Of a stretch of DNA of 64,000 nt, positions 23,893 through 24,054 are shown piece after piece. The position numbers were made by a program, and so were the translations under genes. Origin of the DNA: Escherichia coli. Lineage in GTDB: Bacteria > Pseudomonadota > Gammaproteobacteria > Enterobacterales > Enterobacteriaceae. Location: assembly GCF_030384885.1 (NCBI RefSeq), contig NZ_CP128613.1, one strand, 5' to 3'. The notes under the pieces were generated by a model. That model ran no database searches. It saw nothing but the letters and a program-made list of their open reading frames with translations, and was not told the DNA's origin. Position 1 is the first letter of the stretch. Every line of letters starts with the position of its first letter.

Positions 23893-24054
23893 ACCAGTGT
23901 CCTGCATATCTCTTGTGCGTGATAACGGAGTGTAACAAAAGGGACAGGCAACAAGGGATTTTTTGCAATTGCAGCCGTCGGGTGGCGTTGTGCACCCGGT
24001 CACTGTTATTGAGTTTAAAGTATATGTATCAACATATACATCGTAAATATTTAG

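Follow-up and report, generated by a model that had tools for sequence, protein, structure and literature searches.

A possible disabled terminator stem in the acquired espL1 3′ tail of Escherichia coli

The spacer between yniD and espL1 (the current name of arpB) in this Escherichia coli strain contains a perfect inverted repeat which we take, with moderate confidence, to be the AT-rich stem of a marginal intrinsic terminator belonging to espL1, whose U-tract this haplotype has lost through a 12-nt deletion. As a feature, the palindrome is ordinary, confined to certain alleles and of a known kind. At best, a poorly expressed effector gene would gain from it a weak terminator hairpin that is so far unannotated, specific to certain alleles and disabled in this strain, and it would show that terminators can be made and broken within a single species by indels in AT-rich 3′ tails. 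In what follows, the window is the whole 64-kb stretch of DNA that was analysed; the part of it considered here is 100% identical to strain 2013C-4282.

The palindrome and the acquired DNA around it

The palindrome is made up of two perfectly matching 8-bp arms, GTATATGT (24020-24027) and ACATATAC (24032-24039), around the 4-nt spacer ATCA (24028-24031), and pairing is not extended by the flanking bases. A gap of 15 bp separates it from the espL1 stop codon (24055-24057) and its near edge lies 127 bp upstream of the yniD ATG (23892-23890, minus strand). The sequence-only reading of this DNA had placed the repeat exactly, both in sequence and in coordinates, including its position 15 bp past the arpB stop, and its figure of about 130 bp to the start of yniD agrees with the present one. 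On the espL1-sense (minus) strand the RNA is GUAUAUGU-UGAU-ACAUAUAC, forming an 8-bp stem of two G-C and six A-U pairs with a 4-nt loop. The predicted folding energy of this hairpin is -7.8 kcal/mol in context and -6.6 kcal/mol in isolation, with a z-score of -2.7 relative to shuffled sequences. The GC content of the palindrome is 25%, that of its surroundings 24% and that of the espL1 insert 39%. There is no T-run beside it on either strand (minus, TTTAAACTCAATAAC; plus, ATCGTAAATA). The earlier statement that it lacks a T-run and is not a canonical terminator is thus correct for this strain, where the T-run was taken by the 12-nt deletion described below.

Table 1. Coordinates in the window of the genes and sequence elements discussed.
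Feature	Position	Strand	Basis or remarks
ydiY	22974-23732	+	local gene
yniD	23785..23892	-	local gene; 35-aa small membrane protein
Candidate yniD extended -10, TGtTACACT (TGTTACACT)	23929..23937	-	alignment, consensus match
espL1 island	~23950..26422		~2.5 kb without counterpart in espL1-free relatives; replaces ~190 bp of ancestral yniD-thrS spacer
GC-rich hairpin in espL1 3′ tail, CGGGTG/CACCCG	23977..24000		terminator-like on plus strand only
Residual tail after stem, TTTAAACTCAATAAC	24005..24019	-	alignments
Sigma-70-like match, TTTACG-17-TATACT, toward yniD	24019..24047	-	9/12 consensus positions; overlaps palindrome
Palindrome, GTATATGT-ATCA-ACATATAC	24020..24039	-	sequence, fold
espL1 (arpB)	24055..25953	-	intact, 632 aa; type III effector, ShET2/EspL2 family
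thrS	from 26474	+	local gene

The evolutionary context of the palindrome was assessed with a set of 80 orthologous loci, fetched using YdiY as anchor. In E. whittamii, the divergent 'E. coli' E69, Citrobacter, Enterobacter and others, all lacking espL1, the start codons of yniD and thrS are ~300 bp apart. The edges of the insert were located with empty-site loci of this kind (L006, L009, L063, L010, L011 and L033 of our set). The window aligns to the empty site at two places only, namely from the yniD ATG to ~23949 and from ~26423 to the thrS ATG, and since only these two flanks align, the intervening segment is inserted or replaced DNA. Its edges are at ~23949|23950 and 26422|26423, and it comprises a 105-bp 3′ tail, espL1 itself and a 469-bp 5′ region. 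The palindrome lies 70 bp inside the insert, counted from the yniD-side edge.

The 3′ tail is the fastest-evolving, most polymorphic and most indel-prone piece of the locus. Its identity to K-12 (23950-24054) is 74%, compared with 94% for espL1 and 97-100% for the flanks. Such features are shared with acquired genes of the H-NS-silenced type, which the locus resembles in its AT-rich tail, a promoter-like hexamer pair, indel polymorphism and pseudogene decay in several lineages; the resemblance provides context only and not a mechanism for the palindrome.

The espL1 gene itself falls into deeply divergent allele classes within E. coli (window 24055-25953 compared with loci L002, L003 and L004). 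Protein identity to the window version is ~91% for K-12 and O157 and ~68%, over the aligned part, for ST131, while the core genes flanking espL1 have 97-100% DNA identity. The gene is frameshifted in K-12 and is a frameshifted pseudogene in several lineages. In the bacterial papers retrieved on espL1 it is treated only as a virulence-database gene.

How unusual is the palindrome? The window contains 21 perfect inverted repeats with arms of at least 8 and loops of at most 8, against 8.2 +/- 2.5 in dinucleotide shuffles, the excess consisting mainly of GC-rich hairpins, several of them followed by a T-run. The palindrome is one of just three clearly AT-rich examples. In shuffles of the 162-bp spacer the probability of such a repeat is P = 0.014, and in its 54-bp AT-rich part P = 0.022. 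The palindrome is therefore only weakly above chance, being locally suggestive and ordinary for a 64-kb scan, and the earlier caution regarding chance palindromes in AT-rich DNA was justified, with about eight such repeats expected per window. These numbers bear in both directions on the proposal that the palindrome arose by chance in acquired DNA that is TA-rich and prone to indels, is functionless in any allele, and has beside it a T-run that is a plain AT-rich homopolymer. We consider this possible, if somewhat doubtful: the expectation for the window as a whole is in its favour, as is the self-complementarity of TA-rich sequence, but the probabilities for this spacer alone speak against it. 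Further evidence comes from the alleles discussed below.

No second copy of the palindrome is present in the 64-kb window, even with up to three mismatches allowed. Being single-copy in the window and 25% GC, it does not belong to the REP/BIME-like class of multi-copy, GC-rich elements. No independent copy of the espL1 3′ tail was found in the plasmid collection, where the four matches are all to chromosome-sized or otherwise anomalous records. An Rfam scan of 23600-24400, on both strands and at a permissive threshold, returned only eukaryotic snoRNA and lncRNA noise with E > 2, far below gathering thresholds.

Alleles of the 3′ tail and their terminator-like character

The palindrome is carried by 77 of 5,426 complete E. 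coli genomes (1.4%). These divide into 48 with the window allele and 29 with a sister allele, seen for example in EC332, PCN033 and SMS-3-5. Followed along the espL1-sense strand, this sister allele has the stop codon, 15 nt and then GTATATGT-TGAT-ACATATAC-TTTATTTTATTCATAAAACT, so that the stem is followed directly by TTTATTTTATTC, with seven T's in its first eight nucleotides (TTTATTTT). Alignments show the window allele to be the EC332/PCN033 allele minus exactly 12 nt (ATTTTATTCATA), leaving ACATATAC-TTTAAACT; the deletion junction lies between 24017 and 24016, with a 1-nt ambiguity. The stem is invariant in all 77 carriers, three single-mismatch variants of the window allele leaving it untouched.

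Beyond the carriers, a T-rich run (ATTTTATTTTTTCAT or one of its variants) is still present in the alleles of XH990, ET665, 1943, O157, 100416, ETEC, K-12 and ST131, which have weaker AT hairpins in different registers (dG -1.7 to -4.7). Some AT-rich hairpin is thus present in the tail of every allele (dG -1.7 to -7.8), the palindrome being the strongest. Since all ten other alleles examined retain the T-rich run, its absence from the window is the derived state. The retention of the run argues against a wholly neutral origin of the palindrome, while the variety of short hairpins in shifting registers, the position in the most polymorphic part of the locus, the confinement to 1.4% of genomes and the decay of espL1 to a frameshifted pseudogene in K-12 and other lineages are all in keeping with one.

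The terminator-like character of the alleles was measured with a T-tail score following an approximate version of the d'Aubenton-Carafa scheme, calibrated on this window. On this approximate scale the EC332 allele scores 4.59 and the window allele 2.82; five terminator-like hairpins from other parts of the window, each a GC-rich stem with a T-run, served as reference and score 3.3-4.3. The EC332/PCN033 allele has a U-rich tract directly 3′ of the stem; the window allele, with four T's in the first eight nucleotides (TTTAAACT), does not. The location, 15 nt past the espL1 stop on the minus strand, is just downstream of the gene on its sense strand, as for a terminator.

The result on which we rely is a calibrated rescan of the window for hairpins together with their tails. 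Hairpins with dG <= -6.5 abutting a tail of at least 4.5 number 12 on both strands of the window, against a mean of 4.5 in shuffles, which implies P ~0.002 for a chance match on the correct strand within 60 nt downstream of any single chosen stop. The sister stem, abutting its tract of seven T's in eight on the right strand 15 nt past the stop, is such a case, and this is the second point against a chance origin. The combination at the grade of the window allele (tail >= 2.8), on the other hand, is at background frequency, with 102 real instances vs ~85 in shuffles, as a neutral origin would predict. A combined discriminant, for which positive values denote a terminator, gave approximately -1.6 for EC332 (borderline) and -34 for the window; its formula is approximate and stem closure is imperfectly constrained, so the rescan is preferred to it. 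A consensus terminator scan that needs at least three G-C pairs did not call the palindrome.

In the major alleles of O157 and K-12 the best hairpin is 8-9 nt from the T-run, indicating that a terminator has not been consistently maintained, and the 74% identity and indel-prone nature of the 3′ tail likewise suggest weak constraint. Neither arpB nor yniD has a 3′-end entry in the supplements of a K-12 3′-end study (PMC7815308), and the K-12 allele is in any case a different one. Taken as sequence, then, the sister allele has the layout of a genuine, if weak, terminator, whereas the window allele does not. The earlier interpretation as a whole is partly supported: its suggestion of a 3′ hairpin for arpB is borne out in spirit, in that the palindrome is 15 nt past the stop and the sister stem abuts a U-tract.

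From these comparisons we infer terminator activity in the sister alleles, its loss in the window haplotype and consequent read-through. In the closest allele class, the espL1 transcript would form the hairpin and pass from it directly into UUUAUUUUAUUC, and this structure may release or pause RNA polymerase before yniD. In the window haplotype, the deletion of ATTTTATTCATA has taken most of the U-tract, leaving a bare hairpin followed by UUUAAACU. Efficient termination would not be expected of such a hairpin, which could at most protect the 3′ ends of processed transcripts, and any espL1 transcription would probably read through toward yniD. A more elaborate proposal holds that the deletion is a natural terminator-loss polymorphism, with yniD coupled to espL1 in 48 genomes and insulated from it in 29, and that the surviving hairpin serves as a 3′/5′ processing or stability element in a new espL1-yniD co-transcript; we think this unlikely.

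As in Rho-independent terminators of E. coli, the stem-loop stands a few nucleotides past the stop on the sense strand, and the sister allele adds the U-rich tract. Unlike them, the palindrome has an AT-rich stem with G-C pairs at only two of eight positions and a stability of ~-7 kcal/mol, compared with -10 to -18 kcal/mol for GC-rich stems elsewhere in the window, and in the window allele the U-tract has been cut to UUU. The 3′ UTR hairpin of this strain, lacking a U-tract, also resembles the 3′-stabilising stem-loops of REP type that block 3′-to-5′ exonucleases. In contrast to those, however, it is single copy, AT-rich and weak, and a role of this sort needs a processed 3′ end at its base.

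The palindrome overlaps, and with its own sequence helps to make up, a sigma-70-like match directed toward yniD (Table 1), raising the question of whether it could belong to an allele-specific promoter giving yniD a second transcript with a long leader. The match has an optimal 17-bp spacing, and alignments read by eye place TTTACG-17-CATAAT (TTTATG in ST131) at the same position in the O157, ETEC and ST131 alleles. In favour of such a promoter, which would be of the spurious type typical of AT-rich acquired DNA, AT-rich islands are known to abound in them. The two such sites found in 700 bp are, however, not above chance, with 1.8 +/- 1.2 expected. Moreover, the spacing is broken in the alleles of K-12 (13 bp) and XH990/ET665 (15 bp). 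We thus regard a promoter here as quite unlikely, and as spurious or secondary if present.

The yniD control region

Upstream of yniD, alignment of ~40 enterobacterial species shows a single conserved element, TTTGnTAnACT, at a distance of 35-45 nt from the ATG. It fits the extended -10 signature TGn-TAnnnT and lies in ancestral DNA outside the espL1 insert. On the strength of its conservation and consensus match, it is probably the extended -10 promoter of yniD, giving a leader of ~30 nt. The start site that this element implies lies ~105-110 bp downstream of the centre of the palindrome, which is not part of the ancestral control region of yniD.

These observations bear on the proposal, also made in the sequence-only reading, that the palindrome is the site of a dimeric regulator of yniD. 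In the form considered here, it would be an operator for a dimeric transcription factor that either regulates yniD or limits read-through into it. Perfect 8-4-8 dyad symmetry of the two half-sites is what would be expected of an operator, and the palindrome lies upstream of yniD on the same strand. Its distance from the implied start, by contrast, is not that of a site near the core promoter, and its location in DNA that most yniD-bearing genomes lack adds up with this to a strong argument against a yniD operator. It is missing from every espL1-free species having yniD and from 98.6% of E. coli genomes, yet the YniD protein is identical in every E. coli locus fetched; conservation together with yniD and its promoter is thus not seen. 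In IHE3034, an IS1 takes the place of all DNA from 23950 on and yniD is kept. The window offers no further copy, within three mismatches, that might belong to the same regulator, and we know of no convincing match to the consensus of LexA, Fur, FNR, CRP, GntR/HutC-type regulators or IHF, to dif or to the H-NS nucleation motif. An operator is, then, very unlikely, and the earlier proposal is not supported, the palindrome being in acquired DNA, in 77 of 5,426 genomes and apart from the conserved -10 element. Because that element lies elsewhere and the imported DNA around the palindrome has this form in only a minority of strains, the palindrome is not worth pursuing as a yniD site.

For yniD, the literature provides only a genomic-SELEX table with sigma-factor peaks under the 'thrS-yniD' spacer. 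The coordinates given for these peaks seem to place them inside the arpB pseudogene region, which has no entry in that table, and not at the palindrome.

Other elements and the yniD-thrS gap

The GC-rich hairpin at 23977-24000 lacks a U-tract when read on the espL1 strand, and the plus strand, on which it is terminator-like, is antisense to both espL1 and yniD. Its stem is perfect in the window allele only, being weakened in K-12, O157 and PCN033. A second perfect palindrome, TGCAATTGCA (10 bp without spacer), occupies 23964-23973 and is specific to this haplotype; three near-identical strains have TGCAATTACA at this place, and K-12 has TGTTATTACA. Just past ydiY, where this gene and yniD converge, a strong canonical terminator with dG -18 kcal/mol, followed by TGTTTTCGTT, is found at 23741-23765.

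Three by-products of the analysis are of more use than the palindrome: where the insert begins and ends, the apparent role of the yniD-thrS gap as a hotspot for insertions, and the failure of the upstream half of the thrS leader to align. In IHE3034 (L005, ~2750-3590), the IS1 is joined exactly at the equivalent of 23949|23950 in the window, with yniD kept and espL1 deleted down to 23 N-terminal codons. The same gap holds an integrase-bearing island in Escherichia sp. E1V33 (L007, 4881-6089), and in E. albertii (L008, 4430-5406) it is occupied by AT-rich inserted DNA that includes an NleG-like ORF. The presence of different foreign DNA at this place in other Escherichia suggests an insertion hotspot.

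At the other end of the insert, the thrS leader and promoter region at 26235-26422 (upstream of ~-51) does not align with the leader found in relatives that lack espL1. Judged by this alignment, the well-studied thrS operator seems to have its upstream half in DNA that differs from what the nearest Escherichia without espL1 carries there. Yet 26235-26422 is 99% identical between the window and K-12, which sets it apart from the remainder of the insert.
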